A DNA stretch of 64,000 nucleotides from an uncultured Gammaproteobacteria bacterium (GTDB taxonomy: Bacteria; Pseudomonadota; Gammaproteobacteria; JAJDYQ01), in contig CALODD010000037.1 in NCBI GenBank assembly GCA_942491945.1, positions 67,500 to 131,499 of the forward strand, read 5' to 3'. Made by a program: the position numbers and the translations under genes. This document shows, piece by piece, positions 1-20,789 of the stretch. A model generated the notes under the pieces. It did no database searches, had not been told where the DNA came from, and was given only the letters and a program-made list of their open reading frames with translations. The stretch's first letter is position 1. Every line of letters begins with the position of its first letter.

Positions 1-399
1 ATGAGAATCCCCTTCTTTGGCTTCTTCTGGAAACTACTGACTGGCAACAACCTGACCTTTCCCAAAATGCACATGGCCATCGTTAAATATGGTGACAACC
101 CATTATCGATGACCGTGGACTCATGGTGGTATCGAGGCAATGAACAGAACTATAGCCTCTACGACACCGAACAATGTTTTACCGATAGCAATGACGGCCT
201 CTCCTGTTTTCTCTCCCCATGGCATCTCGTAGGTCGCTATGAGAAGAAAAAGCACTGGTATCACGATTACCTGTTGCCACCGCTGGCAAAACTGTCTTAT
301 TTCATCGTCATGGCCATCATGGCTCCGTTTAACCGTAATGCAATGGCGCTCTATGCATTCATCTTTATTTTTACGCTATTTCAATTGCCCGTTATTTGA
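1..399 (+). CDS. Hypothetical protein with a hydrophobic C-terminus; possibly the left part of the integrative element next to tRNA-Phe
   Basis: Open frame starts at the window edge with ATG. No recognisable motifs. The C-terminal region resembles a TM segment. Confidence 0.2.
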   Translation: MRIPFFGFFWKLLTGNNLTFPKMHMAIVKYGDNPLSMTVDSWWYRGNEQNYSLYDTEQCFTDSNDGLSCFLSPWHLVGRYEKKKHWYHDYLLPPLAKLSYFIVMAIMAPFNRNAMALYAFIFIFTLFQLPVI

Positions 400-447
400 G
401 CTGGCGGGCAGCCGCAGGCTGACCTCCGGCTTAAATAACGGGTTAAG

Positions 448-514
448 AGACGTGCCTGTAACACGTCTTAAAAAAGGGGACTAAAACTTCCATACCAACA
501 CAGTAAACCACAGT
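448..514. repeat. ~68-bp conserved module with an 7-8-bp hairpin (agacgtg..cacgtct) upstream of rep. An inverted copy lies at 46523..46590.
   Basis: Direct comparison: the reverse complement of 448-514 matches 46523-46590 with about one mismatch. Confidence 0.75.
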
Positions 515-535
515 ACAACATAAAGGGGATTTAAC

Positions 536-1819
536 ATGGCAAGGTACAAAGCTAAGAAAATGGATCGTGAAGGCATGCTCTTCGCAACCGGACAAAAGAT
601 CTACGATTTATCCAATGTGAAGATCCTTCACAAAGGGGTCGACACCCTGAAATACCTCTACAAGGGCAAAGTAAACCTAGAAACCTACCAGCTCATCAAA
701 GATCTCTACGAGACAACCCACTCAGCCATCTTCGGATTTGCCGACCAAATGTGGATGCTCGGATCCGGTGGAGCCTCAGGCTACCGTTACAGACTTCAGA
801 ACAACGATCTCGGCATCATTCTGTTCTTCGGATCCAAGCACATCAAAATCGACGAAGACTGTAATCTCGAAGGCAATCACTTCAAAGCCGAACTATCGCC
901 TCACTTCATCCTTGCCAGAGAAGCCAAAGAAGTCGACCAGTTCATCGATAACCTCATGAAGCACTTCCTCACCGAATCAAACCGCCCACAACTGGCCGTA
1001 CACCTGTGTGCAGACGTCAAAGGTTGGGACATCCCACAGGACTTCGATCACCGCCTCAGAACACGTGCAAAGCGCCTCATGGACTACAAAGGCGTATCCG
1101 ATTATGAGTTCGACCTATCCGCTACATCAGTCACCTACGGCAATATGGAAACCATCACCTATGGCCGCGCAAACTCACTGCAATTCACCGTCTACGACAA
1201 GACATTAGCCAACAAAAAACAGGATAAAGTCGAGTTCTGGGAAAAGATCTGGAAGAAACAAACCAATGACAACTTCGAGCCCTACTACCAACCCGGCGAA
1301 AGAGTCAGACGAATAGAATTCCGCTTTCACCACACCGTCGTAGAACAGTTCTCAAGAACCCTTGCAACCGGCACAGATTCGGACGGAAACCCTTGTATCT
1401 GGGGCAATAAGAAAATCAGATCCTTCGTCGAACTAGAACAACACCTCACAGGCCTATGGCAATACGCCGCCATGAGCTTCCGCCTAGATCTCACCACAGA
1501 ATACATAGATCCCTTCTGGACAGTGATGATCGATGACGTTGAATTCCTGCCGCTCAAACCTGACCTGCTCTACAAGCGCGAATACAAAAGCCCAGGCACC
1601 GGATCCGATAGAAACGTCATCATGGCCATGGCCAACAAACTTTCAGTACTTGTACGCCGAGGCATGAAGAAAAAAGATATCTTCAAAACCTTCAAGAAAG
1701 ACGAAATCTGGCCAGATATCCAAGCATACTATTTCAACAAAGGATTCAACACAGAAGCCATCCGAGATCATATTTACCAGCTTGCAGACAGACGATTACT
1801 CCAGGGCAAAGCAGCGTGA
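536..1819 (+). CDS. Rolling-circle replication initiation protein (Rep_trans / filamentous-phage gene II-like family)
   Basis: 427-aa ORF. Inferred from its position as the first gene of an integrase-bearing element and from general Rep_trans-like sequence character. Overlaps the integrase start by 4 nt. Confidence 0.45.
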   Translation: MARYKAKKMDREGMLFATGQKIYDLSNVKILHKGVDTLKYLYKGKVNLETYQLIKDLYETTHSAIFGFADQMWMLGSGGASGYRYRLQNNDLGIILFFGSKHIKIDEDCNLEGNHFKAELSPHFILAREAKEVDQFIDNLMKHFLTESNRPQLAVHLCADVKGWDIPQDFDHRLRTRAKRLMDYKGVSDYEFDLSATSVTYGNMETITYGRANSLQFTVYDKTLANKKQDKVEFWEKIWKKQTNDNFEPYYQPGERVRRIEFRFHHTVVEQFSRTLATGTDSDGNPCIWGNKKIRSFVELEQHLTGLWQYAAMSFRLDLTTEYIDPFWTVMIDDVEFLPLKPDLLYKREYKSPGTGSDRNVIMAMANKLSVLVRRGMKKKDIFKTFKKDEIWPDIQAYYFNKGFNTEAIRDHIYQLADRRLLQGKAA

Positions 1820-2803
1820 TTCAGAAAACCGACAAAGGCTACAAAGTCGATGTACGCCCAGCAGGATCCAGAGGCATACGCATCAGAAAAACTTTCAAAA
1901 CCAGAAAGGAAGCCGTAGCCTATGAATCATGGATCCGAACACAAGCCAACCAACAAGAAGACTGGCAGCCACCCTCAAAAGACAAAAGAACACTCATAGA
2001 CCTCATCGATGAATGGTATGAAGCACACGGAAAAAACCTGAAAGACGGATCCAGAAGAAAAACAAAACTCCAAGCCATGGCCAAAGCCATGAATAACCCA
2101 CTAGCAACCAAATTCAAAGCCAATCAATTCACCGACTACCGATCAAACCGAATCACCAACGGCACACACCCAAACACACTAAATCACGAACTAGCCTACC
2201 TAAAAGCCGTATTCAATGAACTCAAACGTGCCGAGAAATGGCAAAGAAAGAACCCACTACAAAACACCAGAAAGATAAAGACCGACGAACCAGAAATGAC
2301 CTACCTCACCACAGAGGAAATCAAGGAACTACTCGAAGCACTAAAAAACAGAAAAAGTATGGATGCCTACCACGTATCACTCATCTGTCTAGCAACAGGC
2401 GCAAGATGGTCAGAAGCAGAAACAATCAGGGCTGAATACATCCAACCATACAAGATCACATTCAATGCCACCAAAAAGCGGCAAGTCCAGGACGATCCCA
2501 ATCAGCAAGGATCTCTACAAAACAATAAAAACCAAAGAGAGAGGGAGATTATTCAAATCATGCCTAGGTGCGTTCCGCATGGCCATGAAGGAAACCAATA
2601 TAAAACTACCAGATGGTCAAATGTCCCATGTACTCCGACATACCTTTGCCAGTCATTTCATAATCAATGGTGGCAATATACTAACCTTACAAACAGCTCT
2701 GGGTCATTCAAACATAACAGTAACCATGCGCTACGCTCATTTATTACGTGATCATCTGAAAGACACACTAAAATATAATCCCATTAGCTCGTTTCTATGT
2801 TGA
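1816..2803 (+). pseudogene. Tyrosine recombinase/phage integrase, frameshifted (+1 in an A5 run at 2473-2477). Paralog of the integrase at 46821-47813.
   Basis: The N-terminal 220 aa in one frame and the C-terminal 112 aa (HVLRHTFASHFIINGGNILTLQTALGHS..YAHL) in the +1 frame both align to the intact integrase at 46821. The expected junction is ...NATKSGKSRTIPI... Confidence 0.8.
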
Positions 2804-2856
2804 ATTTTTGCTTTTCGCCCTCACGTTATCATTTTCAACCAACAAGACAGATAAAT

Positions 2857-3072
2857 ATGAACGATTTAGATAGATTAAGAGATGCCATCCATACCTTATC
2901 GAACTTAGATAAAGTTGTTAAAGATAATCCTGACGTTACGTGCAATACCGCACTTCAAAGTTACGCAAACCTTGATATAGGAACTGAGCCTGATGTTGCG
3001 ACTTATATCTTTAAACTTATACAAGCTAACCCGAACATAACTTTTGGGGAATTCATTAAATATCTTACGTAA
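2857..3072 (+). CDS. Small hypothetical protein between the integrase and tRNA-Phe
   Basis: ORF with an internal ATG (MNDLDRLRD...). No homology recognised. Confidence 0.2.
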   Translation: MNDLDRLRDAIHTLSNLDKVVKDNPDVTCNTALQSYANLDIGTEPDVATYIFKLIQANPNITFGEFIKYLT

Positions 3073-3157
3073 AACTCAAAGTGGACATTATATGGGCACT
3101 ATGAATTAATGAGATAACCTTCAGTTATCATAACTTACTGATATTTAGATATTTAAA

Positions 3158-3233
3158 TGGTGGCCAGGGACAGAATCGAACTGCCGACACGGGGATTTTC
3201 AGTCCCCTGCTCTACCGACTGAGCTACCTGGCC
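3158..3233 (-). tRNA. tRNA-Phe (GAA)
   Basis: The reverse complement reads ggccaggtagctcagtcggtagagcaggggactgaaaatccccgtgtcggcagttcgattctgtccctggccacca. It has a cloverleaf, a GAA anticodon and a terminal CCA. Confidence 0.92.
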
Positions 3234-3288: not shown

Positions 3289-3552
3289 TTAGCCTTTGAA
3301 TTCAACGGGTTTTTCAGATCCATCACCGAAAAAATAGTTCTCCAGCTCGTTAAGTAAATACTCTTTTGCCTTGGGGTCGTTCAAGCTGAGGCGGTATTCG
3401 TTAATCAACATGGTTTGATGTAACAACCAGTCCTGCCACGCTTGTGCAGAGACGTTTCCCATGATTTTTTTACCCAGTTCGCCGGGTACGGGGGGGAATG
3501 CCAGCCCTTCCGCTTCAATACCCAGCTTAATGCATTGAACCTGTTTTGCCAT
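3289..3552 (-). CDS. yggX: Fe(2+)-trafficking protein YggX
   Basis: 87 aa. The KQTMLINE and GELGK motifs are typical of YggX. It is located downstream of mutY as in E. coli. Confidence 0.85.
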
Positions 3553-3627
3553 TGCTCTATTTCTCTATGATTTACGTGCAAATATACGCTATTTCGAACC
3601 AAATGCCGATTGCGTGCAGGAACATAA

Positions 3628-5061
3628 TTATTTCTGATTTCTGACGACGATGCTTTTGATTCTTTTTATCGCTTCATCGGCCGTTTGTATGCGGCGGCTA
3701 GGAGTTTTCATCAATAATTCCTGAATCACCATGTTCAACGGGCGCTTTGTATCTGGGAGACGCGGGATGTCGTCCGATACATGTGAGTACAGAATGTCAT
3801 TTACTGAACCTGAATTAAATGGAGGCTTTCCAGCCAGCATTTCATACAAAATGACGCCCATGAGATAGAGGTCACTACGACTATCTTCTGTATGTCCTTG
3901 TGCGCGCTCAGGACTACAGTAAGCAGGCTCATCAACGGCAGGAACTTCAGAAATATTACTCATGGCGTGTAACCGCCTGAATGCGCCGATGTCTGTAATA
4001 ACTGGTGTGTTTTCATCCCGAAATACCAGTTTATCTGGTCTAATATCCGAGACATAAAATCCGGCTGAGTGAATTTTCTGCAACGCCGACATCAGTTGCA
4101 AAAAGTATTTAATGGCTTCTTCTTCGGTCACGCCACGACGAGACAGACGGTCTGCCAATGTTTCGCCATGTAGTATTTCTTGCGTCACAATCAATCGAAA
4201 ATCGATAACCTGATAATCCAGCCAACGAATGATATTCGGATGATTCCAGGTCAGGATATCGCTGAGATCTTGCGTGCTTGCCTGTGACACGTCCTGCGCA
4301 CTCGCGGCTTTAAATGTCAGCAACTTGAGAAGTACCTTCTCAGACTCCCCCTCCTTCACTGCCTTAAAGGTCGTCGCATGCTGTCCTTTATCGATATATG
4401 AGATGATATTGTAACCGCCAATGGTTGCCTTACCGGCCAGAATGTCTTTGAAATCAAACGGCCATTCTTCGGCACCATGCAACATTGCCATTGCCAGATT
4501 AATTTCATGTTGGGTATGACGAGTGGCCAGTTCTAATTGGTCGGTTGGGCTAAGATCCTGCACAGGTTCTGAGACCTTTTTCTCACTTTCATATTCTTCA
4601 TCGGGGATATTTTTGAGCACGTCTTTAACGTACATCTCAGCTGTTTTCTTCAGCGGTGATTCGTAGCCGTGGGATTCCAGCACGGTTGAAACTAAACGTA
4701 CCAGCTGTTTGGAACGGATAGTGCGCTTAAAAAAGAAATCCTCAGCTCCAAGCTTCATGGCGCGAATCACATCGCGCGACATTTTCATGTCTTCTGGCGT
4801 TTTGTGAGAACTCATGAAAACCGTTGTCGGGAAGCCAGCTTCACTTCGATAACGTTCAAACCAATCGATACCGTTATCTTCCCCTTGCAGGTTGTCGATA
4901 ATGAGTAACTCGTAGTCTTTCCAGTTAACCATCACAGGCTCGCCCTGGATCTGAGGGTCGTATTCCTCCAGATGAACATCTGGAAAAATCTTTTCAATCA
5001 TATGCCGCAACACCTGACGGTGCTGCGCATGGCGATCAATAGTAAGAATCTTGTATTGCAT
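3628..5061 (-). CDS. Receiver (REC) domain - Ser/Thr protein kinase-like fusion with an atypical catalytic loop
   Basis: The N-terminal domain has an acceptor Asp (LLIIDNLQ), a conserved S and a conserved K. The kinase domain has VSDIRPDKL in place of HRDLKPxN, DIG for DFG and SPE for APE. The start ATG overlaps the mutY stop (TAATG). Confidence 0.7.
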   Translation of the reverse strand: MQYKILTIDRHAQHRQVLRHMIEKIFPDVHLEEYDPQIQGEPVMVNWKDYELLIIDNLQGEDNGIDWFERYRSEAGFPTTVFMSSHKTPEDMKMSRDVIRAMKLGAEDFFFKRTIRSKQLVRLVSTVLESHGYESPLKKTAEMYVKDVLKNIPDEEYESEKKVSEPVQDLSPTDQLELATRHTQHEINLAMAMLHGAEEWPFDFKDILAGKATIGGYNIISYIDKGQHATTFKAVKEGESEKVLLKLLTFKAASAQDVSQASTQDLSDILTWNHPNIIRWLDYQVIDFRLIVTQEILHGETLADRLSRRGVTEEEAIKYFLQLMSALQKIHSAGFYVSDIRPDKLVFRDENTPVITDIGAFRRLHAMSNISEVPAVDEPAYCSPERAQGHTEDSRSDLYLMGVILYEMLAGKPPFNSGSVNDILYSHVSDDIPRLPDTKRPLNMVIQELLMKTPSRRIQTADEAIKRIKSIVVRNQK

Positions 5062-6107
5062 TACAGACTTATTAACAAACTGGCGACGGGCTTTGGAAGA
5101 CCTAGCTCCTGCAATTTCTGTCTCGCAAACCATTCATAACCCGGTTCACTGACGCATGGGGTGCTGGAATCAACCTTGATATACCAAGGCTGTATATCAA
5201 GATGGTAATGACTAAACGTATGTCTAAAACTTATTCCCTTACTCATTGTGGTTATTTTTAATCCAAACTGATCGGAAATTATGTTCTGTATTCGCTCATC
5301 ATTCAACTCTCTGTCTACTTCCGGCAAACTCCATAACCCACCCCAAATTCCGACAGGTGGTCGCTTACAAAGTAGAAACTGTCCATCATAGTCACAGATC
5401 AACATATTCGTATGTTTACACGGTAACGTCTTCTTTGGCTTACGTGTGGGTAACTCTTCGGTCAGGTTTTGTTCGTATGCCTGGCAGTTATCGATCAAAG
5501 GGCAATCTCCACAACGCGGCTGTCTTCTCGTACAGAGTGTTGCACCCAGATCCATGATCGCCTGCGTATAATCGGCCAGTCGATCAACAGGCGTCAGCTG
5601 CTCGGCTAGCTGCCAGAGCTGTTTCTGTACGGCTGTAGTTCCCGTCCAGCCTTCGATCGCGGCATAGCGTGCCAGAACACGTTTAACGTTACCATCCAGA
5701 ATCACACCGCGCTCACCATAAGCCTGCGCCACAATCGCGCCAGCCGTTGAACGACCGATACCCGGTAATTGTTCAAGCCCTTCGACCGTTTCAGGAAATT
5801 TACCATTGTGTGATTTGACTACATCTTTCGCACAACGATGAAGATTGCGCGCTCTGGCGTAGTAACCCAGGCCTGCCCATAGCGCCATCACTTCATCATC
5901 TGAGGCAGATGCCAGTCCCCTAACAGTCGGAAACCGTTTAGTAAACTTCAGGAAATAAGGAATAACCGTTTTAACTTGTGTCTGCTGCAGCATGACCTCT
6001 GAGAGCCAGACACGATAAGCTGACCGATCTTGCTGCCAGGGTAAATCTTTACGTCCATGTTGATCAAACCAGCTCAGAAGACGCTGGCTGAAATGCGAGT
6101 CGCTCAT
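5061..6107 (-). CDS. mutY: A/G-specific adenine DNA glycosylase MutY
   Basis: 348 aa. HhH-GPD motifs, a 4Fe-4S Cys cluster (C..C..C..C) and a NUDIX-like C-terminal domain. Confidence 0.9.
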   Translation of the reverse strand: MSDSHFSQRLLSWFDQHGRKDLPWQQDRSAYRVWLSEVMLQQTQVKTVIPYFLKFTKRFPTVRGLASASDDEVMALWAGLGYYARARNLHRCAKDVVKSHNGKFPETVEGLEQLPGIGRSTAGAIVAQAYGERGVILDGNVKRVLARYAAIEGWTGTTAVQKQLWQLAEQLTPVDRLADYTQAIMDLGATLCTRRQPRCGDCPLIDNCQAYEQNLTEELPTRKPKKTLPCKHTNMLICDYDGQFLLCKRPPVGIWGGLWSLPEVDRELNDERIQNIISDQFGLKITTMSKGISFRHTFSHYHLDIQPWYIKVDSSTPCVSEPGYEWFARQKLQELGLPKPVASLLISL

Positions 6108-6713
6108 TTAATACAGGTCACCCGAATTGATAGTTGAGTCATCAACCTGTTGCAGACTGCAATCGGTTTTTCCCTGGTATTCGCATTCCATTCGTTGAAG
6201 CATACTCAATGTCGTTTCTTTCACCTGTGATTCCATCATGGTAGAGCCAATAAGCGGCGGCACCCAGAATGACGGCTGGCTTTCCGACTTGAAGCTAATA
6301 AGGCTTTGATGTTTGGCCAGCGGTTCTATCGTCCAGACAATATGGCCAAAATCAAAATCACTCTGTTCTGGTTCGATATCAAGGCGAATCTCGTTATCAG
6401 ATTCTTGCAACGTCAGGGTATTTCGATACTCAACACAAAATAATAAAACGCAGGTATAGGAGTGCTCTCTAATTCGACGAATGCCTGGTTGATCGGATGC
6501 AAGGTGCTCGACACTTTGTATAACGTCTTTCAGTACCACAACTCGATCAGGATCGGCTAAAACCTGCTTCGCATAGTTCGCACTGATATCGACTCTGGCC
6601 TGCAATTGCACTGTGTAAGTACCATTCTGCTCCGAGGCCGCATAATGTTCGATCTGAGCAGCCTGTGCACCGCTCATCAAAGCGATACACAAGGCTGCGG
6701 ACCGAATCCACAT
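6108..6713 (-). CDS. Secreted hypothetical protein (signal peptide), translationally adjacent to asmA
   Basis: N-terminal signal peptide ...SGAQAAQ. The start abuts the AsmA stop. No confident family assignment. Confidence 0.45.
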   Translation of the reverse strand: MWIRSAALCIALMSGAQAAQIEHYAASEQNGTYTVQLQARVDISANYAKQVLADPDRVVVLKDVIQSVEHLASDQPGIRRIREHSYTCVLLFCVEYRNTLTLQESDNEIRLDIEPEQSDFDFGHIVWTIEPLAKHQSLISFKSESQPSFWVPPLIGSTMMESQVKETTLSMLQRMECEYQGKTDCSLQQVDDSTINSGDLY

Positions 6714-8795
6714 TTAGAACAGGCCTTTCAGCTTATCTCCGAGCTTGTCCTTAATTTTATCTTTGACTTCTTCCTTCTTTTCTTCGACTTTCGCTTTAGC
6801 CTTCTCTTTGACCTTGTCAGACAGAGCCACCGATAAATCAGGCGTATAAGAAGGATCAGAAAACGGACCAGTCACTTTCACCGGAATGGTCACGCCTTTA
6901 AGCTTTTCCAGTTCATCACCACCCTGGCCTTGTAAGCTTCCCACAATGGATGCTTTCACAAGATAGTCCAGATATTCTTTGACCAGATCGGCTTTGCCTG
7001 CACCTTCAATACGCAGCAACGGGGACTTTAGAGAGAAGTCCTGATTATTTACCACACCATTGGTAATCTTGGCCGAACCTTTCAGTTCAGAGAAATCTGT
7101 TTTATCAGGCTCATTCGATGCCGTTGTCGATTTCCCCTGCAGCTTGGCCATACCTTCACGAATGACCTTGGCGATATTCACACCAACCAGCGCGCCGTTG
7201 GTAAAAGAAAACGTGGTGTTGCCATTGAGTGTTTTCTTCACTGCATTTTGTGAGTTACCGGTTGCCGTAATATTCACAGCGGCATCCGTTCGGCCAGCAA
7301 GCTTCGCCTCGCCCTGCATATCGGTCAGCAACGGTTCAATCTGTACACCATCCAGCTTTGAGCTGACCTTAAGACGCGGTGTTTTCTGACGCGCGTCGAC
7401 CGTTACATCAGCATTGTATTTACCCTGATACAGCGATGCCGATGGCTTCATATTCACGTGGCCGCCTTTTGCTTTCACCTGTACCACGATCTCGGTCGCC
7501 TTCACTTTCATCTTGGTGACTTCACCAATACGTGCAACGCCATTCATATTCAACTTACGCAACGTCTCGACTGGAAATAATTCCGCATTCGGATCACTTT
7601 CACCTTTCTCGGTCGGTGATTCAGATGGCGGTGGTAAATAACGATCCAGATCGATCTTGTCGATGGTCAGATCGAAGGTCAGCGCCTGAGTCGCAAAATC
7701 AGTCACAGCCAGCTTACCGTTCATTTTCGTGTCATCCAGCATCAGGTTGAGCTTATTCAAACTCGCCTGTTTCGTAGTGGCCGCCAACGCAAAGTCAGCA
7801 CTAACACGAGTCAATGCGCTTCCATCACCCGTCACAGGTGCATCCAGTCCCAGTGCCTTCATCAGATCACGCGCGTTGAACTGCGCCAAGGCAATCTGAC
7901 CATTGAAAGCGGGCTCACTCATAATGGATTTACCATTCAGGCTACCTGTCATTGCCAGTCCCATGGTATCGATACTCAGGCCTGCGAGTGACAGCGTCTG
8001 CGCCTTCAAATCGACGTTTAATGCGGTCGACTTCAGATCCAGTGCGACTTCGCCACCAGGTAGCGTTTTACCTTTGGCCTGAACATTCAGTGTCAGTGGT
8101 TCAATCGAAAACTGATTACCCTCAGCGTTTGCCTTGATGGTGCCCTTCATGTCGACACTCGCCGCAACAGCTGGATTGCTCATATTCAATTTAGTATTGA
8201 GCGCAATATCAACTGGATCACCCGCCGTCAGTGGGCCGCTTGTCAGATTAAAGTCACTGATCTTGATGTCCTGCCCCTGCTGTTCGTCCTGCCAGCTGAT
8301 ATTGGCATTCTCGATACGAATTCCACCGATTTTAATCGACTGCAGTTCAGGGCCATCGCCACTCTTATTCTTATGTTGATCCTCGGATTTATCACCCGCC
8401 AGATCATCCCAGTTGGTTTTACCGGTTTTATCTTTCTTCAGGTTCAGTGTCAGGCCATCAACGACGATTTCATCCATCTCGACCTGCTTATCCAGCAATG
8501 GCATCAGGGCAACCTGAATATTCACCGCATTCATCTGCGCAAAGGGTACATCACCAAAGCCAACCGCATTGCTCAGCTCGGTCTTACCCAGCGCCAGCCC
8601 GACTTTTGGAAACACACTCAAACCAAGATCACCTTCGATCTGCAGATCACGCCCGGTCTGCTGTTTCACTGCCTCAACAATCTGCGGTTTGAAGTCGTTT
8701 GGATTGATCACCAGCGGCAATATGACGGCCGCAGCAATAATGAGTACAAAACCGAGAACAACCAGTCCTGCGATAATCTTAATCAGCTTGCCCAT
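6714..8795 (-). CDS. asmA: AsmA family outer-membrane assembly protein
   Basis: 693 aa with an N-terminal TM anchor and a long beta-rich periplasmic region typical of the AsmA family. It is next to mutY, matching the Pseudomonas asmA-mutY-yggX synteny. Confidence 0.75.
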   Translation of the reverse strand: MGKLIKIIAGLVVLGFVLIIAAAVILPLVINPNDFKPQIVEAVKQQTGRDLQIEGDLGLSVFPKVGLALGKTELSNAVGFGDVPFAQMNAVNIQVALMPLLDKQVEMDEIVVDGLTLNLKKDKTGKTNWDDLAGDKSEDQHKNKSGDGPELQSIKIGGIRIENANISWQDEQQGQDIKISDFNLTSGPLTAGDPVDIALNTKLNMSNPAVAASVDMKGTIKANAEGNQFSIEPLTLNVQAKGKTLPGGEVALDLKSTALNVDLKAQTLSLAGLSIDTMGLAMTGSLNGKSIMSEPAFNGQIALAQFNARDLMKALGLDAPVTGDGSALTRVSADFALAATTKQASLNKLNLMLDDTKMNGKLAVTDFATQALTFDLTIDKIDLDRYLPPPSESPTEKGESDPNAELFPVETLRKLNMNGVARIGEVTKMKVKATEIVVQVKAKGGHVNMKPSASLYQGKYNADVTVDARQKTPRLKVSSKLDGVQIEPLLTDMQGEAKLAGRTDAAVNITATGNSQNAVKKTLNGNTTFSFTNGALVGVNIAKVIREGMAKLQGKSTTASNEPDKTDFSELKGSAKITNGVVNNQDFSLKSPLLRIEGAGKADLVKEYLDYLVKASIVGSLQGQGGDELEKLKGVTIPVKVTGPFSDPSYTPDLSVALSDKVKEKAKAKVEEKKEEVKDKIKDKLGDKLKGLF

Positions 8796-9497: not shown

Positions 9498-10106
9498 TTG
9501 CTACGATCTACTATGTCAGCCAGCGACCTTAACCGTCTCCGCGAAGATATTCACTTCGAAACCACACTGTGTGAACAACCACTGAAATTCACCTCAACCT
9601 GGGGTATTTTTTCACCACGTGAGATCGATAGCGGCACCGACCTGTTGTTACGCTATCTCGAAGTTGATGCGGATAGCGATTGCCTGGACCTGGGCTGTGG
9701 CTATGGTCCTATCGGCATCACCATGGCCAGACTTGCGCCACAGGGTTCAACGCTAATGGTCGACAAGGACTTTATGGCCATTGAATATTCGAAAAAAAAT
9801 ATTGCGCAGAATCAGGTCAACAATGCACAGGCTCAGCTCAGCAACGGCTTTGATCATATTGATTCACAACGACGCTTTGATGTCATCGCTTCCAATATCC
9901 CGGCCAAAGTCGGTAAGGAACTGTTAACTCTTATATTGCACGATGGAAAACAGCGGCTCAATCCAGGGGGACGATTTTATGTTGTCACCGTGAATGGGCT
10001 ACGACAGTTTATGAAACGTTATATGACCGAGATCTTTGGTAACTATAAAAAGCTTAAACAGGGCAAGAATTATACCATCGCCTGCGCGACTCGAACTGAC
10101 GATTAA
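9498..10106 (+). CDS. Class I SAM-dependent methyltransferase (RsmC/RlmG-type small MTase domain)
   Basis: PREIDSGTDLLL, LDLGCGYGPIG (motif I) and NIPAKVG (NPPF-like motif IV). Confidence 0.65.
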   Translation: MLRSTMSASDLNRLREDIHFETTLCEQPLKFTSTWGIFSPREIDSGTDLLLRYLEVDADSDCLDLGCGYGPIGITMARLAPQGSTLMVDKDFMAIEYSKKNIAQNQVNNAQAQLSNGFDHIDSQRRFDVIASNIPAKVGKELLTLILHDGKQRLNPGGRFYVVTVNGLRQFMKRYMTEIFGNYKKLKQGKNYTIACATRTDD

Positions 10107-11461
10107 ACCAGACCTTCAGGTACATCTTCAGGGCTGATATCTTTTAAATGCCCAATAACCTGCGCACCATTATCAGGCCGATCCTCTGGTGACTTCGCCA
10201 ACAACACTTCGATAAGACCGTTCAATCCATCCCACTTATCAGTCAAAGCTGGGATCGGCTCACGTACATGCGCTGTAAATACCTGCAATGATGTCTTGCC
10301 TGTGAACGGGCGCTTACCTTCCAGCATTTCATACAGAATAACGCCCAGTGCGTACAGGTCGCAACGCTGATCAATCTTTCCGCCGACGGCCTGTTCAGGA
10401 CTAATGTAATACGGTGTACCGATGATCTGTCCTTCTTTCGTTAGATGCTTATCATGGCTATCAAAGGCCTTGGCAACACCAAAATCGACCAGCGCTAATG
10501 CGCCGTCTTCACGAAATAATATATTCGCTGGTTTTAAATCACGGTGCAGAATATTTAACTCATAAGCGGCCTGTAATCCTGCAGCGATTTGTGCCGCGTA
10601 CTGGATAGCTTCGGTCCGTGATACGCCTTCGCGAATTCTCGATTTTAAATCTCCACCTGGCAGGTATTCCATGACATTGTAAAAATATTCACCCTCAGCA
10701 ACATGCTCAAGAATTCGAACCACGTTCGGGTGATGAATTTCATTCAGTAATTCAAATTCCTGCGCAAATCGACGGGTTGAAACATCATCGATGAGCTGAT
10801 TATCCATTAGCTTTAGAGCATATAGCTGCTCGGATTGTCTGTGCCTGACTTTAAACACCGAAGCCGCACCTCCCATACCCAGATATTCCAGCACATCATA
10901 AGCACCCAGTCTGGCTTTACCTTCGGCGATCTCCAACATCGTGAACGGCCAGGTATTGTCCATCACCTCTTCGGGTAGCGTCAGCCATGCCCCAGAGAAC
11001 GGTGCATTAATTTGACTCATATCAGAAGGCTCGTCATCGACTTCCATGCTTTCTTTAGTGGCTTTCAATGTCGCAAGCCGCGCCAGTGATTCACGCAAGG
11101 TCTGGATATCCAGCATACTCATGGCCAGATAATCCAGCGCACCATGTCGCATCATCTCAGTGGATCGCTTCATGCTGTCTTTAAAGTCGATCACGATCAC
11201 TCGGCCAGCGATATCACTCTCGAGTTGCCCAAGAAAATCACTCGTAAACTCAAATTCCTTACCCGTCACCAGGAAAACAATATCGATAGAACTCAGGACT
11301 GAGGCGTTTAAATCTTGCAACGCCTGCCAGGAAAGACTGGTGGATGCAGAAAAAGCTTCGGTGAATAATGGTTCGAGCGCAGGCCGTAAACGAATATCAT
11401 CCAGCGCAATCAGCGCGGTATCAGCCTGCATGGCTGACATACGGTCATACTGCCCCGTCAC
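10103..11461 (-). CDS. Pseudo-receiver domain - Hanks-type Ser/Thr protein kinase
   Basis: Canonical HRDLKPANIL, DFGVAK and GTPYYISPE motifs. The N-terminal ~140 aa are REC-like but lack a clear acceptor Asp (IVFLVTGKEF). Confidence 0.8.
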   Translation of the reverse strand: MTGQYDRMSAMQADTALIALDDIRLRPALEPLFTEAFSASTSLSWQALQDLNASVLSSIDIVFLVTGKEFEFTSDFLGQLESDIAGRVIVIDFKDSMKRSTEMMRHGALDYLAMSMLDIQTLRESLARLATLKATKESMEVDDEPSDMSQINAPFSGAWLTLPEEVMDNTWPFTMLEIAEGKARLGAYDVLEYLGMGGAASVFKVRHRQSEQLYALKLMDNQLIDDVSTRRFAQEFELLNEIHHPNVVRILEHVAEGEYFYNVMEYLPGGDLKSRIREGVSRTEAIQYAAQIAAGLQAAYELNILHRDLKPANILFREDGALALVDFGVAKAFDSHDKHLTKEGQIIGTPYYISPEQAVGGKIDQRCDLYALGVILYEMLEGKRPFTGKTSLQVFTAHVREPIPALTDKWDGLNGLIEVLLAKSPEDRPDNGAQVIGHLKDISPEDVPEGLV

Positions 11462-11515
11462 GAAAATCTCCCTTATTAAATAAACTTAAAGTAGATCGTA
11501 CTGTAATTTTAGACC

Positions 11516-13519
11516 CTAACTGGCTTTAAGCAGTTTCTTTTCAATGGTATCTGGAATTGCCTGAGACAGCGCCTGAATCAAATCCTGTCCTGTGGCATAG
11601 CGATCTTCGCGTTCCTTTGCCAGTAAACAAGTGACTACATCATTCAATGGATCCTGTGGACTGGACAGTTGAGGCACTTCACCATTGACGTGCAGCCGCA
11701 TGATCTCGAGCGAAGATTCACCTCGATAAGGACGAACACGTTCCAGCATTTCATACAGAATGACACCAAGGGCATACAAATCACTACGCCCATCTAGCTG
11801 ACTTCCCACGGCCTGCTCTGGGCTCACGTAATGCGGTGTTCCAACGACCTGTCCTGAAAACGTTAGAGTCGTTTGTCCTTCAGCCATCAGTTTAGCTATA
11901 CCAAAATCAAGAATCGCCAGTTCACCATTGTCTCGAAACATAATATTAGAGGGCTTTAAATCACGATGCAGAATGTTCTTTTGGTGAGCTGCGTGCAGCG
12001 CTGAAGCAATCTGAGCTGTAAACCGAACCACATCCTGTCGATCAATACCTTCTTTGATGCGATCTTTCAGATCACCACCCGGAAAATATTCCATGATTGA
12101 ATAAGCACTATTCTGATATTGAGCAAGGTCACGAATTTTAACGACATGTTCGTGATTGACTTCTTCAATCAACTGATAACCACGCAAGAAGCGTTTCTGC
12201 CCCTGCTGATCACTGGTATCCATATCAAACAACTTCATAGCAGACAGTTGTTGTGTATCCTGGTGCTTCACTTTAAATACTGATGCTGTGCCCCCTACTG
12301 CAACAAACTCAATCACATCATAATTATTCAGTGAAGCTTTACCCGCTTCAATATCTGCAGGCGTAAAGGGCCAGCGCTGCCCCATACTAAATTCCACAGC
12401 CTTACCGTGATGTTCAGGTAGCTCGGCCTGCTCCGCCACATTATCACGTTCAAGAATAGACATCAGACCGGTAGTAATAAACGACGCCTCCGACGGTCGA
12501 TCGTTTAGTTCAATTTCCGGTTCATAGGCGTCCATCTCACCGGTATAACCAGTCTCAACATATGGCTGTGATTTGCCTTCGCGCAATTTATTCGGCACAT
12601 CATGTTCATCGGTATTACGTTCTACGATATCGATTAAACCGGGTGTTATAAATGACGCTTCAGATGGTTCATCTATTTCATATTCATCGTCATCATTGGC
12701 GGCCAGACTGTCATTAATATCCGTGGCCTCGAGGCTTTCAGCACGATATACCCGGTCATCCGGTAACTCGCTGACGCCGTAGGCCTGATTGTTCAGGCTG
12801 TGATCTTCCAGCTCATTAGTAACGACAGGTTCAAGCGTGGTGGGATCCAGCCTTGGCAACACCTCGGTAGGCTCATCGGTCATGCCGTCATCTTCCGGCA
12901 GTGCATCGAACCTGATTGGTTCGGCAGTTTTCGTAGACTCGGTAATTGGTCGAACTTCAGGTAACAGATCGGTGGTGGGTTCTGGCTCTGAGGCAGGTTC
13001 TACAATATTTTCTTTCGCGGCTTCTACTGGCTCCACGGATATGGGCTGGGCTTCACTGACATTTTCATCTTGCTGAGCCTTGACTGGTTGAGGAAAACGT
13101 TCTTCACGAAGATTAGCCGCCATCAGCAAGGCACGTGTTAATCGTTGTGCGCTAACTTTGGTGATATCAATATAATCAGCGCCGCCTGCACGAACCATAT
13201 CACCGGCATCATCGACCGTTGCTGACCGATCCAGAAAAATGGCCATCGGCAACGAAACCTGAGTGATCAAATCGAAATACCAGCTACGTATTGCTGGCTT
13301 ATTTTCGGACATATCGACAATGACCAGATCGACTTCAGACCAGTCATAGTCGTGCTCTGGCAATCCCTGCTCGAATGGATCAATGGCCGAAAACTGCGGC
13401 TTATCTAACAGGCGCAATAACGCCACGGCCAAACCTCGGCGATATTTCACCACTGACCCAATCACAAGAATGCGTTTAAACCCGCAATCCGCAAGATTGT
13501 CGATCATTTCCACAGCCAT
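11516..13519 (-). CDS. Receiver-like domain - acidic repeat linker - Hanks-type Ser/Thr protein kinase
   Basis: HRDLKPSNIM, DFGIAK and GTPHYVSPE motifs. N-terminal REC-like domain (VDLVIVDMSE). An internal ~35-aa repeat (..PSEASFITPGLIDIVERN.. and ..PSEASFITTGLMSILERD..). Confidence 0.8.
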   Translation of the reverse strand: MAVEMIDNLADCGFKRILVIGSVVKYRRGLAVALLRLLDKPQFSAIDPFEQGLPEHDYDWSEVDLVIVDMSENKPAIRSWYFDLITQVSLPMAIFLDRSATVDDAGDMVRAGGADYIDITKVSAQRLTRALLMAANLREERFPQPVKAQQDENVSEAQPISVEPVEAAKENIVEPASEPEPTTDLLPEVRPITESTKTAEPIRFDALPEDDGMTDEPTEVLPRLDPTTLEPVVTNELEDHSLNNQAYGVSELPDDRVYRAESLEATDINDSLAANDDDEYEIDEPSEASFITPGLIDIVERNTDEHDVPNKLREGKSQPYVETGYTGEMDAYEPEIELNDRPSEASFITTGLMSILERDNVAEQAELPEHHGKAVEFSMGQRWPFTPADIEAGKASLNNYDVIEFVAVGGTASVFKVKHQDTQQLSAMKLFDMDTSDQQGQKRFLRGYQLIEEVNHEHVVKIRDLAQYQNSAYSIMEYFPGGDLKDRIKEGIDRQDVVRFTAQIASALHAAHQKNILHRDLKPSNIMFRDNGELAILDFGIAKLMAEGQTTLTFSGQVVGTPHYVSPEQAVGSQLDGRSDLYALGVILYEMLERVRPYRGESSLEIMRLHVNGEVPQLSSPQDPLNDVVTCLLAKEREDRYATGQDLIQALSQAIPDTIEKKLLKAS

Positions 13520-15537: not shown

Positions 15538-16458
15538 ATGGAACTCACGCTATGCATGATCGTCAAGGACGAAGAAGACAATATCGCTGACTGTCTGCGA
15601 CCGATACACGATCTGGTCAGTGATATTCAAATTATTGATACGGGATCGAGTGATCGTACGGTCGAAATCCTGCAGGGTGAGTTCAATATACACCCACGCA
15701 CTATCCTATTAAGAGACCGACATTGCTTTAGCTTTGGTGGTGCACGAACACTCTGTTTCCAACAGGCAAAAACAGACTGGATAATGCTGCTGGACGCCGA
15801 TGAAAGAATCGAACGAGGAGAATTAGAACAACTCATCGAATACCCGATGCCACAGAAAACTCATGGCTTGTTTGTGAGATGGGTCACACAGACTAAAAGC
15901 CACACGATTGAAGATTACAAACTTCCAATCTTCTCGAAAGATACCCGACACCGCGGTCGCATGCATGACACTGCTCAACCTGACTTCAGAAAGAAAGGTC
16001 GTATTGCAAAATGGTATAACGATTTAACTATCAGTCATTTTCCCAAAGAATCCAGCCGAGCCGACAAATCTAACTGGCGCTTAAAAGTCATGTCCTGCGG
16101 TTTACGCTATTCACCAAAATGGTATCGACATAGCTGGTTTCTCGGATACACCTATTACAAGGACAATGATTTAGACAATGCCCTGCAGCATCTACAACGT
16201 TGCGCTAATTCTAATTCTGAACGTTTTCCTGTTGAGCGTATAAATAGCCTGATGGTAATGACAGAAATTTATGCGCAGCAGAATGACATGATGTTAGCTA
16301 GTGCCTCTTTAAATAAGGCATTACAACTATATTTATCACATGAAAATGATTTTGAAGTAAGCATCAATTTTCGAATGAAACACTGGCTATACCTAACATC
16401 ACAATATCTAACTCATGGTGAGTTACACCATATCAAAGCCTATGAGTTTTCGTACTAA
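15538..16458 (+). CDS. Family 2 glycosyltransferase with C-terminal TPR-like helical region
   Basis: MIVKDEEDNI...DTGSSDRT...LDADE, typical GT2 DxD-type N-terminus. Confidence 0.6.
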   Translation: MELTLCMIVKDEEDNIADCLRPIHDLVSDIQIIDTGSSDRTVEILQGEFNIHPRTILLRDRHCFSFGGARTLCFQQAKTDWIMLLDADERIERGELEQLIEYPMPQKTHGLFVRWVTQTKSHTIEDYKLPIFSKDTRHRGRMHDTAQPDFRKKGRIAKWYNDLTISHFPKESSRADKSNWRLKVMSCGLRYSPKWYRHSWFLGYTYYKDNDLDNALQHLQRCANSNSERFPVERINSLMVMTEIYAQQNDMMLASASLNKALQLYLSHENDFEVSINFRMKHWLYLTSQYLTHGELHHIKAYEFSY

Positions 16459-19407: not shown

Positions 19408-20789
19408 AGCTCTGATTTGAAATCCTCGTATTTCCCCGTTGGGGATCGTTCAATTTCATCCGGATAGACAAAACGAAATTCAAACGCATGCCGTAATTCT
19501 TTCGTCAGCATGTCACTGATGGTTTGCTGCTCATTCGTATTCAGCTCTCGGTCAGCGACCAGACGTACCTCGATCACTTCTGATTCGATCTGAGCGAGTT
19601 GTAACTGCGTCACTGGCGCGATCTCCGTAATACGTCGCGTTGAAAAGACCGGCCAGTGCGAGGAACCATCTGGTAGCTTCAACATATTCCTGGTACGACC
19701 CAGAATACGTTTCAGGGTTAGCGACCCTCGACCACAGGCACAGGGCTCTCCCACCTCAGCGTAATCTCCAATTTCATAACGAATCAGAGGCATCGCAAAA
19801 TTATGCAATGGGGTGACGACGACTCGCCCTGTTTCTCTGCTCTTACAGGGCTGATATTCGTCATTTAAGACTTCGACAAGCATCGTTTCAGAACAAACGT
19901 GATAACTACCATGCTCAGGACATTGGAAAGCAATATTTCCAACTTCCATTGCGCTGTAAATATCGGCAATCGATGTATCAAAAACTTTCTCGCAATAAGC
20001 TCGGTCCTCAGCAGTTAAGACTTCGCCAATCGTACGAATTTGTTCAATCGATTGTAGTTCTGCATCAGATTGATCCATCAACTCCGCGAGCGCTCTCAGA
20101 TTCGAGGGATAAGTTAATAGATAATCAGGTTGCTCATCCAACAGCCAACGCAGCTGATCGGCAACATCACATTCTATGCTCAGCATGACGGTCATACCGC
20201 CGGAGTAGACTTCATCAATCGGGTGGCCCCAACCGGCAGAGCGTATGCCAGGCGGTGACCGGGCTTCCTCACTATCACCGGTATAGCGAATCGATGCGAG
20301 TTTTTTACGATGATTCCGTCCATGCCATTCATGTTCTCGTAAAGTCTGCGCGTACCACATAAATTGCTGCATATCGGTGACATAGACATTGACTGGCAAA
20401 CCTGTTGAACCGGATGAGCCTGTTTCAAGGATATCGCCATGCTCTTTCGGTATTGCCGTACTGGTCAAATCGGCTGAGTGCCGCTGTAAAGCCCAGCGTT
20501 GAAGTACGGGGATAGACTGCCATTCATCGATACTAATACCCGGCCGGGAGAGATTGATACGTTGTAATTCGGATAGACTTCGATAGTAGGATACCGTCCG
20601 AATCGCATGATCCAGTAAGGCATGAAGTTGTTTTAGCTGTTGTTGCTGAATTTCACCACAGCTAAGCCGTTCAGACTGGCTAAACTGGAACTGCATAGAT
20701 AGCAGGGAGGCGGCCGTTGGTGAGGGTAAAGCCGGCCACATAACACCCTGCAATGTGGAGTCAGCGACTACCGGTGGCATTTCCATCAT
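19404..20789 (-). CDS. PaaK/CapK/F390-synthetase-like adenylate-forming enzyme (paralog 2)
   Basis: SSGSTGLPV P-loop and C-terminal GKYEDFKSEL. Confidence 0.65.
   Translation of the reverse strand: MMEMPPVVADSTLQGVMWPALPSPTAASLLSMQFQFSQSERLSCGEIQQQQLKQLHALLDHAIRTVSYYRSLSELQRINLSRPGISIDEWQSIPVLQRWALQRHSADLTSTAIPKEHGDILETGSSGSTGLPVNVYVTDMQQFMWYAQTLREHEWHGRNHRKKLASIRYTGDSEEARSPPGIRSAGWGHPIDEVYSGGMTVMLSIECDVADQLRWLLDEQPDYLLTYPSNLRALAELMDQSDAELQSIEQIRTIGEVLTAEDRAYCEKVFDTSIADIYSAMEVGNIAFQCPEHGSYHVCSETMLVEVLNDEYQPCKSRETGRVVVTPLHNFAMPLIRYEIGDYAEVGEPCACGRGSLTLKRILGRTRNMLKLPDGSSHWPVFSTRRITEIAPVTQLQLAQIESEVIEVRLVADRELNTNEQQTISDMLTKELRHAFEFRFVYPDEIERSPTGKYEDFKSEL

Follow-up and report, generated by a model that had tools for sequence, protein, structure and literature searches.

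Our analysis favours a model in which the 477-aa receiver-kinase protein encoded between mutY and yggX, here called pK, is a doubly degenerate signalling protein that has become fixed at this position and that probably works as a non-catalytic binding or allosteric module, with its active paralogues as the likely partners. The gene was found in the window, a stretch of 64,000 nucleotides from an uncultured Gammaproteobacteria bacterium (GCA_942491945.1, contig CALODD010000037.1). The two halves of this two-domain protein seem to have become binding modules in concert, and the catalytic motifs have been lost throughout a clade whose members are nevertheless held under constraint and, in ten loci, beside the same operon partners.

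The mutY-pK-yggX locus

As the earlier note had stated, and as can be read directly from the sequence, a 477-aa gene lies between mutY and yggX, and its ATG overlaps the mutY stop codon (TAATG); the minus strand across this junction reads ...GTCTGTAATGCAATAC. The intervening pK gene is 1434 nt long and leaves the order and strand of the pair unchanged. The features to which we refer, all on the minus strand, are the following.

11516..13519 (-), win667, a REC-like N-terminus and an intact Ser/Thr kinase (HRDLKPSN, DFG; Pkinase E 3e-50)
10103..11461 (-), win452, an active Ser/Thr kinase with HRDLKPAN, DFG, GMGGAA and the WPF motif (Pkinase E 7e-53)
6714..8795 (-), asmA-family gene, the first in the tightly packed run asmA-hyp201-mutY-pK (PF05170 E 1e-79)
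6108..6713 (-), gene for a 201-aa secreted START/SRPBCC-like protein, joined to asmA and to mutY by a TAAATG junction each
5061..6107 (-), mutY, A/G-specific adenine glycosylase, 348 aa, the upstream operon partner (Pfam HhH-GPD, HHH, NUDIX_4, EndIII_4Fe-2S)
5059..5063 (-), TAATG junction, in which the mutY stop TAA shares one base with the pK ATG (read from the sequence)
3628..5061 (-), pK, an open reading frame for 477 aa: pseudo-receiver, linker and degenerate Hanks-type kinase domain
4672..5061 (-), pseudo-receiver domain of pK, residues 1-130 (alignment to CheY and active relatives; HMMER against H. pylori CheY1)
4468..4671 (-), linker of pK, residues 131-198, mostly predicted to be disordered
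4450..4467 (-), EWPFDF motif of pK, residues 199-204, a pre-kinase hallmark
3670..4410 (-), degenerate kinase domain of pK, residues 218-464 (Pkinase profile; motif table anchored on PknB)
3553..3627 (-), pK-yggX spacer, 75 nt from the pK stop to the yggX start (promoter and terminator scan)
3289..3552 (-), yggX, Fe(2+)-trafficking protein, 87 aa, Cys7 present (PF04362 E 4e-35)

A longer in-frame start of pK at 5133, inside mutY, would give a protein of 501 aa and is not supported by the orthologue N-termini, which all follow the pattern M-x-x-x-I-L-x-I-D and are located at the mutY stop. The MutY translation of the window contains the FeS Cys and FSH motifs; its identity to the MutY proteins of the related loci is 49-63%, and the nearest named MutY proteins are those of Halieaceae, Cellvibrionaceae and Hahella (55-59% identity). 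YggX is 59-85% identical to its counterparts in the related loci. The assignment of the 201-aa protein draws on a remote homologue that carries PF03364 and on fold matches from a low-confidence model; its gene usually co-occurs with pK. The position of asmA is kept in L001-L004, L089, L091 and L096.

In the promoter and terminator scan, the 75-nt spacer between pK and yggX (11-216 nt in relatives) contained no terminator-like site and one weak promoter-like match. The scan returned fewer promoter-like sites than shuffled sequence did, and the weak sites at 3609..3581 and 5306..5278 are no evidence of function. The GC content of pK is 45.7%, against 46.2% for the window. Rfam matches in the window consist of four tRNAs only.

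Degeneration of the kinase and receiver domains

The kinase half of pK has a clear Hanks-type match: residues 218-464 score 105.8 bits with the Pkinase profile (PF00069), above the gathering score of 31.7 bits (E 3e-30), phmmer gives the PDB entries 4eqm and 9ymt as the best sequence matches (E 1e-23), and the best Foldseek match of an AF2 model with a mean pLDDT of 74.7 is S. aureus PknB/Stk1 (E 2e-17), the same two entries being matched with E 2e-17 to 2e-16 and a TM-score (target) of about 0.7. The motif changes reported in the earlier note were borne out. The catalytic loop is VSDIRPDK (residues 337-344, nt 4030-4053), in which only the Asp of HRDxKxxN is retained and Val, Ser, Arg and Lys stand in place of the His, Arg, Lys and Asn; DFG is replaced by DIG (residues 357-359, within nt 3979-3996); and the G-loop, DKGQHA, does not follow the GxGxxG pattern. 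The alphaC Glu is changed to Asp. The domain retains the beta3 Lys246, the Asp of DIG and the subdomain XI Arg, the APE motif is present as SPE, and the alphaF region is intact. The activation loop FRRLHAMSN is modelled as a helix (DSSP helix 360-368) that spans a conserved RLHAxN and contains no conserved Ser/Thr. E. coli MutY, E. coli CheY and M. tuberculosis PknB served as references for numbering or as outgroups, and the PknB reference gave the expected positions K40, D138 and D156.

The receiver half, which had earlier been described as canonical, proved to be degenerate. Its Response_reg (PF00072) score of 22.1 bits lies below the gathering cut-off of 30.2, its best PDB receiver match has an E value of 0.02, and the beta4-alpha4 loop carries an insertion of 5-8 residues. 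DD1 is kept as Asp9, and the metal-binding DD2 (CheY D13) is Arg10 in two independent alignments, the CheY-based one agreeing with a HMMER alignment to PDB 3gwg. pK keeps Asp56 (the phospho-acceptor), Ser84/85 and Lys112, as does every relative in which the receiver region is present; the alpha4-beta5-alpha5 face is likewise conserved, and residues 3-130 of the AF2 model follow a (beta-alpha)5-like pattern. A pseudo-receiver has been defined as a receiver without any one of the five active-site residues, of which DD2 binds the metal directly and is the position lost most often, about 80% of pseudo-receivers being non-acidic there (PMC12632262). Judged by its aligned residues, the receiver of pK is a pseudo-receiver under this definition. 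The Arg at DD2 makes normal receiver phosphorylation unlikely, and the retained acceptor Asp, Ser and Lys mean that phosphorylation could still occur. Of the 18 clade members, 16 have a non-acidic residue at DD2 and the other two form the P0133 subtype; among the active relatives the DD pair is present in P0145, P0148, P0206 and P0241 and absent in P0242 and win667.

Between the two domains, residues 137-198 have a pLDDT below 50. The linker ends in the conserved helix TQHEINLAMAML (residues 183-194; T183, E186, L189 and M191 invariant), followed by the WPF motif, in which W200, P201 and F202 are invariant and which is common to the pK clade and the active REC-Ser/Thr kinases (the window paralogues, P0145 and P0148).

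A small clade under constraint

The orthologues of pK (P0002-P0008 and P0126-P0128) are 37-65% identical to it, and a profile search of 1.84 billion cluster representatives yielded about 12 full-length representatives of the pK type. In the kinase-domain tree about 18 relatives form one clade (72% bootstrap), which is sister to active REC-Ser/Thr kinases including win452 and win667. None of the 18 members retains the His-Arg of HRD; the HRD-Asp survives in 2, the DFG-Asp in 3, the Asn of the catalytic loop in 6 and the beta3 Lys in 14. All 18 have a degenerate G-loop, and the alphaC Glu varies among them. The near-absence of the two aspartates, together with a G-loop that is degenerate throughout the clade, indicates that selection is not preserving catalysis. 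The protein itself is under constraint, as its dN between the window and L001 (0.26) compared with that of mutY (0.31) implies; asmA has a dN of 0.18, and dN is reported alone, not as dN/dS, because dS is saturated in this pair. Across eight orthologues about 55 alignment columns never vary, and they cluster mainly in the C-lobe, the WPF motif and the receiver alpha4-beta5 region; none of them is a Cys, and the alignment contains no conserved redox or iron-binding feature. We conclude that the pK gene is real and under purifying selection.

The clade is small and has so far been found in uncultured gammaproteobacteria only, and our literature search found no published description of it. A scan of a genome collection with the orthologue alignment returned mostly generic kinases, L008 being the sole family member among the matches listed; L007, a further candidate, is an ordinary 788-aa active kinase. 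Related pseudokinase subtypes elsewhere lie beside CBS-domain genes. Related genomes give pK itself no known function, only automatic names such as 'response regulator', so that annotation does not speak against the proposal of the earlier note that pK may be a pseudokinase or scaffold co-expressed with base-excision repair; that proposal gains support from the clade-wide motif loss, the dN and the close mutY-pK junctions.

The comparative data thus support classing the clade as putative pseudokinases. The bacterial Ser/Thr kinase atlas defines a pseudokinase by the absence of at least one of the VAIK-Lys, HRD-Asp and DFG-Asp. At least one of these is missing in 17 of the 18 members, while the window pK alone keeps Lys246, Asp339 and Asp357 together; by the strict triad definition it is therefore not formally a pseudokinase, and its other motif losses and its clade membership make it pseudokinase-like as far as residues can tell. 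Because it keeps the triad, residual or unconventional activity is conceivable from the sequence. The window pK might then be a still active unconventional kinase in which Lys344 may replace the metal-binding Asn in a metal-independent mechanism resembling that of CASK, directed at MutY, YggX or another target and perhaps controlled by the receiver. The intact SPE and alphaF region and the retained receiver acceptor Asp, Ser and Lys would suit such an enzyme. We nevertheless consider this reading unlikely: substitutions affect the HRD His-Arg, the glycines of the G-loop, the Asn of the catalytic loop and the alphaC Glu, the Arg at DD2 speaks against normal phosphorylation of the receiver, and the catalytic Asp is missing from 16 of the 18 members, among them the nearest orthologue (65% identity), in which it is an Asn. 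The retained triad may therefore be incidental.

Position in the operon across relatives

YggX is directly preceded on its 5' side by MutY in gammaproteobacteria, and in E. coli the pair is under SoxRS control (PMC11078426). The comparison of mutY loci in relatives that had been suggested earlier proved informative: in 10 loci pK is a same-strand neighbour of mutY, of yggX or of both (the window, L001, L002, L003, L004/L005, L006, L089, L090, L094 and L096) and is absent in L091. The mutY stop and the pK start are -4 to +15 nt apart in six loci with both genes readable, the values beyond the window being -4, +1, +3, +3, +3 and +15 nt; a seventh locus, L096, is an exception with a gap of about 80-95 nt. 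Two pK genes stand in tandem within the mutY-yggX slot in L004 and L090. An upstream ORF in L090, considered as a possible mutY end, was identified by tblastn as the C-terminus of the second pseudokinase. We conclude that the insertion of pK is old and lineage-wide and not special to this genome.

The site is also variable. In L091, a close relative, mutY and yggX are immediate neighbours within a stable bcp-asmA-mutY-yggX order, and the empty site represents a secondary loss; the spacers of L091 and L092 contain no remnant of pK or of the 201-aa gene. In L093 a 455-aa gene sits between mutY and yggX, and it is unrelated to pK (BLASTP E 7, no Pfam match). In L008 and L096 pK is split by frameshifts. 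This combination of loss, unrelated insertion and frameshifted copies implies that the gene is dispensable in some lineages, and the stability of the gene order without pK in L091 means that the conserved position could partly reflect phylogenetic inertia.

These observations bear on two further readings. pK could be a dedicated non-catalytic partner of MutY and/or YggX, a scaffold, chaperone-like adaptor or regulator whose position reflects a physical complex. Its place directly 3' of mutY with coupling-type junctions in six loci and directly 5' of yggX in ten, coupled translation that would favour matched stoichiometry, and tandem duplicates that remain in the same slot are all in keeping with this idea. 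We hold it to be rather improbable, however, because the invariant columns are devoid of Cys, sister subtypes occur in other contexts and L091 keeps its mutY-yggX pair without pK. It is still less probable that pK is a decaying paralogue kept by inertia in a permissive intergenic site, with a function that is unrelated to its neighbours or absent. The turnover of the site, the frameshifted copies and the erosion of catalytic residues in both domains would be expected of such a gene, but the ORF has stayed full-length across lineages in which MutY identity is only 49-61%, pK has a lower dN than mutY in the same genome pair, and the invariant columns and the stop-start geometry have been conserved.

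That pK belongs to the anti-phage defence kinases of PD-T4-6 or MADS type, as matches to PADLOC PD-T4-6 models (E 5e-42) and to NCBIfam MAD6 (E 2e-28) might suggest, is very improbable, since these are generic kinase-domain matches (on the same PADLOC models win452 and win667 score 237 and 236 bits and pK 142), all NCBIfam matches are far below their cut-offs (MAD6 99 bits against 460) and pK lies in a housekeeping operon with synteny across genera and not in a defence island.

A model for pK function

We therefore return to pK as a probable non-catalytic module that acts on its active paralogues. In this model, the ancestor of pK would have been an active REC-Ser/Thr kinase of the same genomes, which came to be fixed between mutY and yggX in an uncultured gammaproteobacterial lineage. 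There it would be co-transcribed with mutY, and its translation would probably proceed by termination-reinitiation coupling, as suggested by the overlapping or abutting stop and start codons and the lack of a good Shine-Dalgarno sequence; with coupled translation, the dosage of pK would follow that of MutY. Candidate interaction surfaces are the C-lobe, the helical activation loop, the WPF pre-kinase motif and the receiver alpha4-beta5-alpha5 face. The most plausible partners would be the active REC-Ser/Thr kinase paralogues, and pK would in this way couple a kinase signalling network to the state of expression of an oxidative-damage and iron operon. The two paralogues in the window, win452 and win667, are located 5-8 kb from pK. 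A kinase gene stands beside a methyltransferase gene in the window and in L001, and in L091 pK, the 201-aa gene and the kinase paralogues are all missing from the locus, a co-variation seen across three genomes only.

A bolder version of the model, which we regard as doubtful, would make pK an adaptor that is stoichiometrically coupled to the Fe-S glycosylase MutY and to YggX and that physically links Ser/Thr-kinase signalling to base-excision repair or Fe-S protection. pK would then be, as far as we have found, the first bacterial signalling pseudoenzyme dedicated to an oxidative-DNA-damage repair operon, and its clade an eighth bacterial pseudokinase family, one that keeps the ATP-site Lys and is without the metal-binding and catalytic aspartates.

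Bacterial pseudokinases are almost unexplored experimentally. For pK, the same genomes supply natural controls in the form of the active sister paralogues, and its compact operon context, with stop-start coupling to mutY and yggX downstream, suggests partners and phenotypes that can be tested. A functional linkage would join the Ser/Thr-kinase networks of bacteria to their iron homeostasis and their repair of oxidative DNA damage; otherwise pK would be a clean example of a duplicated kinase decaying into a constrained non-catalytic protein. With about 12 cluster representatives, the immediate reach is limited.

Comparison with known systems

The bacterial Hanks-type Ser/Thr kinases S. aureus PknB/Stk1 and M. 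tuberculosis PknB and PknA share the bilobal fold of pK, including the SPE motif, alphaF and the subdomain XI Arg. Compared with them, pK has a pseudo-receiver at its N-terminus, is without PASTA or transmembrane regions, and is changed at the G-loop, the HRD His-Arg, the catalytic-loop Lys and Asn and the alphaC Glu. Closer to pK are the active REC-Ser/Thr kinases of the sister clade (win452, win667, P0145, P0148 and P0242), which have the same order of receiver-like domain, linker, WPF motif and kinase domain; in contrast to pK, they keep HRDLKPxN, DFG, GxGG and mostly the DD pair (not P0242 and win667), and they do not lie between mutY and yggX.

Seven bacterial pseudokinase families have been published, ActPs1, ActPs2, ActPs3, GLW, CP1, DYD and DLHK, and the VAIK-Lys is substituted in all seven, completely in five families and partly in CP1 (34% of members) and DYD (60%); GLW and DYD have transmembrane regions, CP1 has COG3899 and DLHK a DEAD-like helicase or DNA2, and none is described with a receiver (bioRxiv 10.1101/2025.01.12.632604, PMC12599244). 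The pK clade resembles these families as a conserved Hanks-fold clade with degraded catalytic motifs. It differs from all of them in its fused receiver and in a Lys kept in 14 of 18 members, a distinction drawn from the family descriptions and not from their sequences. pK matches no other Pfam domain, and the GLW, LLLL and DYD motifs are absent from the alignment.

Like other pseudo-receivers and atypical response regulators (PMC12632262), pK is without DD2 and conserves the alpha4-beta5-alpha5 face. Its output domain is a putative pseudokinase, however, and not a DNA-binding or enzymatic domain, and pK retains the acceptor Asp together with the Ser/Thr and the Lys. For signalling by binding, a functional analogy is provided by B. 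subtilis YukC/EssB (PMC9600267), a kinase-fold protein that shares only the fold with pK and has a different context; DivL (bioRxiv 10.1101/812529), a pseudo-histidine-kinase, is likewise analogous in function, although it is not homologous to pK and its context differs.

Finally, the E. coli operon is given as mutY-yggX-mltC-nupG (Gifford & Wallace 1999; Pomposiello 2003, as cited in PMC11078426). The window and its relatives share the order and strand of mutY and yggX with this operon, but they have one gene between the two (two in L004 and L090), and asmA and the START-like gene before mutY.

Results

A receiver-kinase-like gene ends a packed gene run at mutY

The degenerate receiver-kinase gene (pK) lies on the minus strand with mutY before it and yggX after it, as the earlier note had described, and the reported overlap of its ATG with the mutY stop codon reads TAATG at the junction, the two codons having one base in common. 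It belongs to a tightly packed gene run that ends in mutY-pK and is followed by yggX after a short spacer.

8795..6714, minus strand, asmA
6713..6108, minus strand, 201-aa START-like ORF
6107..5061, minus strand, mutY (348 aa)
5061..3628, minus strand, REC-kinase-like gene pK (477 aa)
75 nt, minus strand, spacer between pK and yggX
3552..3289, minus strand, yggX (87 aa)
3233..3158, minus strand, tRNA-Phe, directly 3' of yggX

The asmA/201-aa ORF and 201-aa ORF/mutY junctions both read TAAATG. MutY has HhH-GPD and NUDIX_4 domains and the Fe-S motif, YggX has Cys7, and the composition of pK is native (GC 45.7% versus 46.2% for the window). An alternative, longer in-frame start of pK exists at 5133; because the orthologues all start at the mutY stop with M-x-x-x-I-L-x-I-D, the 477-aa reading is correct. 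The distance from mutY stop to pK start is -4, -1, +1, +3, +3, +3 and +15 nt (six loci with both genes readable), L096 being exceptional at ~80-95 nt. Because no strong Shine-Dalgarno sequence is evident at the pK start, it is reasonable to infer that translation of pK would be coupled to that of mutY through termination-reinitiation. The window pK-yggX spacer contains no terminator-like site, and spacers before yggX range from 11 to 216 nt across loci.

The 201-aa protein (6108-6713, minus strand) has a signal-peptide-like N-terminus and a remote homologue with PF03364 (polyketide cyclase/SRPBCC), and its AF2 model, of low confidence (pLDDT 58.5), matches START/Bet v1 folds only; the protein may act with AsmA as a lipid-binding partner. 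Its gene is found in most pseudokinase-bearing loci and is missing from the empty-site locus L091. Beyond tRNA-Phe lies a frameshift-split tyrosine integrase (1816-2751, Int_N; 2465-2803, C-terminal catalytic part), together with a 427-aa ORF (536-1819) without Pfam or NCBIfam match and a 91-aa ORF. Window positions 1-3233 look like an element integrated at tRNA-Phe with a decayed integrase.

The N-terminal domain lacks a receiver active-site residue

The receiver domain had been thought to look canonical, a description at odds with its profile score, its DD2 residue and a loop insertion. Pfam Response_reg scores 22.1 bits on the pK N-terminus, under the gathering score of 30.2, and the best PDB receiver match has an E of 0.02. 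Aligned with CheY by MAFFT and, independently, with H. pylori CheY1 by HMMER, the domain has in both cases Asp9 at DD1, Arg10 at DD2 (CheY D13), Asp56 as the acceptor, Ser84/85 at the T position and Lys112 at the K position. At DD2, 16 of the 18 clade members carry a non-acidic residue (R, C, S, Q, M, V, A, P or K), the other two being of the P0133 subtype, and the beta4-alpha4 loop of the clade receivers has an extra 5-8 residues. A receiver without any one of five active-site residues is a pseudo-receiver, and DD2, a direct metal ligand, is the most frequently lost position (PMC12632262); because DD2 is missing, the pK N-terminal domain is, judged from its sequence, a pseudo-receiver under this definition. 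DD is retained in the active REC-Ser/Thr kinase relatives P0145, P0148, P0206 and P0241, but not in P0242 or in win667, an active paralogue inside the window. In the receiver-like N-terminus of win667 (11516-13519, minus strand), DD1 is Gly ('ILVIGS') and the K position lacks a Lys; intact kinases of this family, too, therefore carry pseudo-receivers.

Kinase motifs are degenerate across a constrained clade

The kinase motifs are as earlier described, with G-loop DKGQHA, catalytic loop VSDIRPDK and DIG; pK also has beta3 Lys246 and SPE. Searched by word index, 5.8 billion proteins gave eight close relatives at 37-65% identity, including one identical NCBI copy, before a sharp fall to generic kinases; ~10 further relatives came from a HMMER profile search against 1.84 billion cluster representatives, some of the same clade and others active REC-Ser/Thr kinases of like architecture. 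In a rough NJ tree, 18 pseudokinase-type sequences form one clade (72% bootstrap) with active REC-Ser/Thr kinases, including win667 and win452 (10103..11461), as sister group, and a pre-kinase WPF motif is common to both groups. In a motif comparison with PknB as the anchor, none of the 18 sequences had HRD His-Arg or an intact G-loop (0/18 each), whereas HRD-Asp was kept in 2/18, DFG-Asp in 3/18, the catalytic-loop Asn in 6/18 and the beta3 Lys in 14/18. By its motifs, the clade evidently does not maintain catalysis.

In the AF2 model of pK (mean pLDDT 74.7), a predicted disordered linker (residues 137-198) separates two folded domains, and the activation loop is modelled as a helix over a conserved RLHAxN motif; among solved structures, S. 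aureus PknB/Stk1 and M. tuberculosis PknB and PknA match best. Among eight orthologues ~55 columns are invariant, clustered in receiver alpha4-beta5, the linker helix, the WPF motif and the C-lobe, and dN between the window and L001 is 0.26 for pK, 0.31 for mutY and 0.18 for asmA, synonymous sites being saturated. Because of these invariant columns and this dN, the pK protein is judged to be under constraint.

The gene adjoins mutY and/or yggX at ten loci

Comparison of related mutY loci, which the earlier note had proposed, found pK next to mutY and/or yggX on the same strand in 10 loci; L091 and L092 are empty, and L093 has an unrelated ORF.

Gene order at pseudokinase-bearing mutY-yggX loci
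Window, L001, L002, L003, L089: bcp-asmA-START-like-mutY-pK-yggX
L006: mutY-pK-yggX; short contig
L004/L005: mutY, two tandem pseudokinase genes, yggX
L090: C-terminus of a window-like copy, then the orthologue P0128, then yggX
L094: pK-yggX
L096: asmA-START-like-mutY-pK-yggX; pK frameshift-split

The MutY proteins of L091/L092 are the closest to that of the window (63-64% identity); the order there is MTase-bcp-asmA-mutY-yggX, and pseudokinase, START-like gene and remnants of either are absent. An NJ tree of MutY groups L091 with the window and L001 (88% bootstrap), so its lack of pK would most simply reflect secondary loss. The mutY-yggX gap of L093 (4255-5924) contains a hydrophobic 455-aa ORF on the opposite strand without Pfam match and a 66-aa ORF. 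The mutY-yggX junction is a recurrent insertion site.

Inside this slot, L004 (4484-7359) and L005 have a 'THFD/THFN' pseudokinase subtype followed by a 'MYFI' subtype, and in L090 (1-1690) the window-like C-terminus precedes P0128, which points to repeated pseudokinase duplication in place. The copies split by frameshift into two ORFs in the metagenome-derived loci L096 (2740-4126) and L008 (87-964) are either pseudogenes or assembly errors. Two other subtypes lie elsewhere, directly 3' of CBS-domain genes (L087, 76-5018; L088, 75-2109), and one of them also stands in tandem with a mutY-linked subtype in L004. L087 additionally contains a gene for a CitMHS-type transporter and a convergent sufE, and it shares its MAG (GCA_006227945.1) with the mutY-linked copy of L006. 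Active kinase paralogues, lacking at the L091 locus, lie beside the methyltransferase gene in the window and in L001, a hint from three genomes that pseudokinase and active sisters go together.

Four apparently active Hanks-type kinases besides pK are encoded in the 64-kb window (10103-13519, 27684-30197, 35806-36696): 452-aa and 667-aa REC-like, 837-aa HEAT-repeat and 296-aa proteins. For a gammaproteobacterium, this density strikes us as high. At 35162-36696, an ORF resembling MerB (alkylmercury lyase) adjoins the gene for the 296-aa Ser/Thr kinase. A cluster at 16455-25735 encodes two AMP-binding enzymes, a type I phosphodiesterase, an FkbM methyltransferase, a GT2 glycosyltransferase, a TPR_Slam-like protein and two products without Pfam match (19404-20789, 20878-22164), and may be a surface-modification cluster.

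Discussion

Altogether, the sequences show a constrained two-domain protein that descends from active paralogues and, across its clade, has lost catalytic residues in both halves. We think it somewhat probable that pK is a non-catalytic protein acting as a binding adaptor or allosteric partner rather than a catalyst; its most plausible partners would be the active REC-Ser/Thr kinases that gave rise to it, and its synthesis would be coupled to that of MutY.

The earlier suggestion of a pseudokinase or scaffold co-expressed with mutY is thereby supported and sharpened, save that the window copy, alone among the 18, retains Lys, Asp and Asp together and so does not formally qualify as a pseudokinase by the triad definition. 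This triad is what favours an unconventional kinase activity retained by the window copy; its 65%-identical orthologue has Asn in place of the catalytic Asp, and we regard such activity as unlikely. A variant of the non-catalytic model, to which the operon position lends itself, makes MutY and/or YggX the true partners. The invariant columns of the eight orthologues include neither a Cys nor any other feature for redox chemistry or iron binding, and the conserved residues give no chemical link to the Fe-S theme of the neighbours; we consider this variant similarly doubtful. The reading of pK as a passenger that decays in a permissive site would fit the empty and split loci, sits poorly with the constraint on the protein, and seems to us very improbable. 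A defence kinase, for which generic kinase-domain matches are the only support, is scarcely credible.

Both the design of the pK protein and its conserved place in the operon are unusual and experimentally tractable. The reach of the finding is limited by the small clade, the uncultured carriers, the dispensability of the gene in a close relative and a DNA-repair link that is putative. It is established that mutY and yggX are adjacent in gammaproteobacteria and that SoxRS regulates them in E. coli (PMC11078426, citing Gifford & Wallace 1999, Pomposiello 2003); in the literature searched we found neither a report of a kinase-like gene inside this pair nor a description of this pseudo-receiver/pseudokinase clade. 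NCBIfam has no specific model for pK (best match 117 bits versus a cut-off of 450), and no related genome was found to name it with a known function, the source annotations being automatic, such as 'response regulator'.

Seven bacterial pseudokinase families are described in the literature searched, ActPs1-3, GLW, CP1, DYD and DLHK, in all of which the VAIK-Lys is substituted, fully in five and partly in CP1 and DYD (bioRxiv 10.1101/2025.01.12.632604; PMC12599244). In contrast, the pK clade retains the Lys and has a pseudo-receiver as its N-terminal domain, while the seven families have other architectures, none described with a receiver domain, a distinction drawn from the family descriptions and not from sequence. 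The clade has its place inside the mutY-yggX operon in an uncultured lineage of gammaproteobacteria and falls among known kinds, bacterial pseudokinases and atypical response regulators, rather than being a new kind of system.
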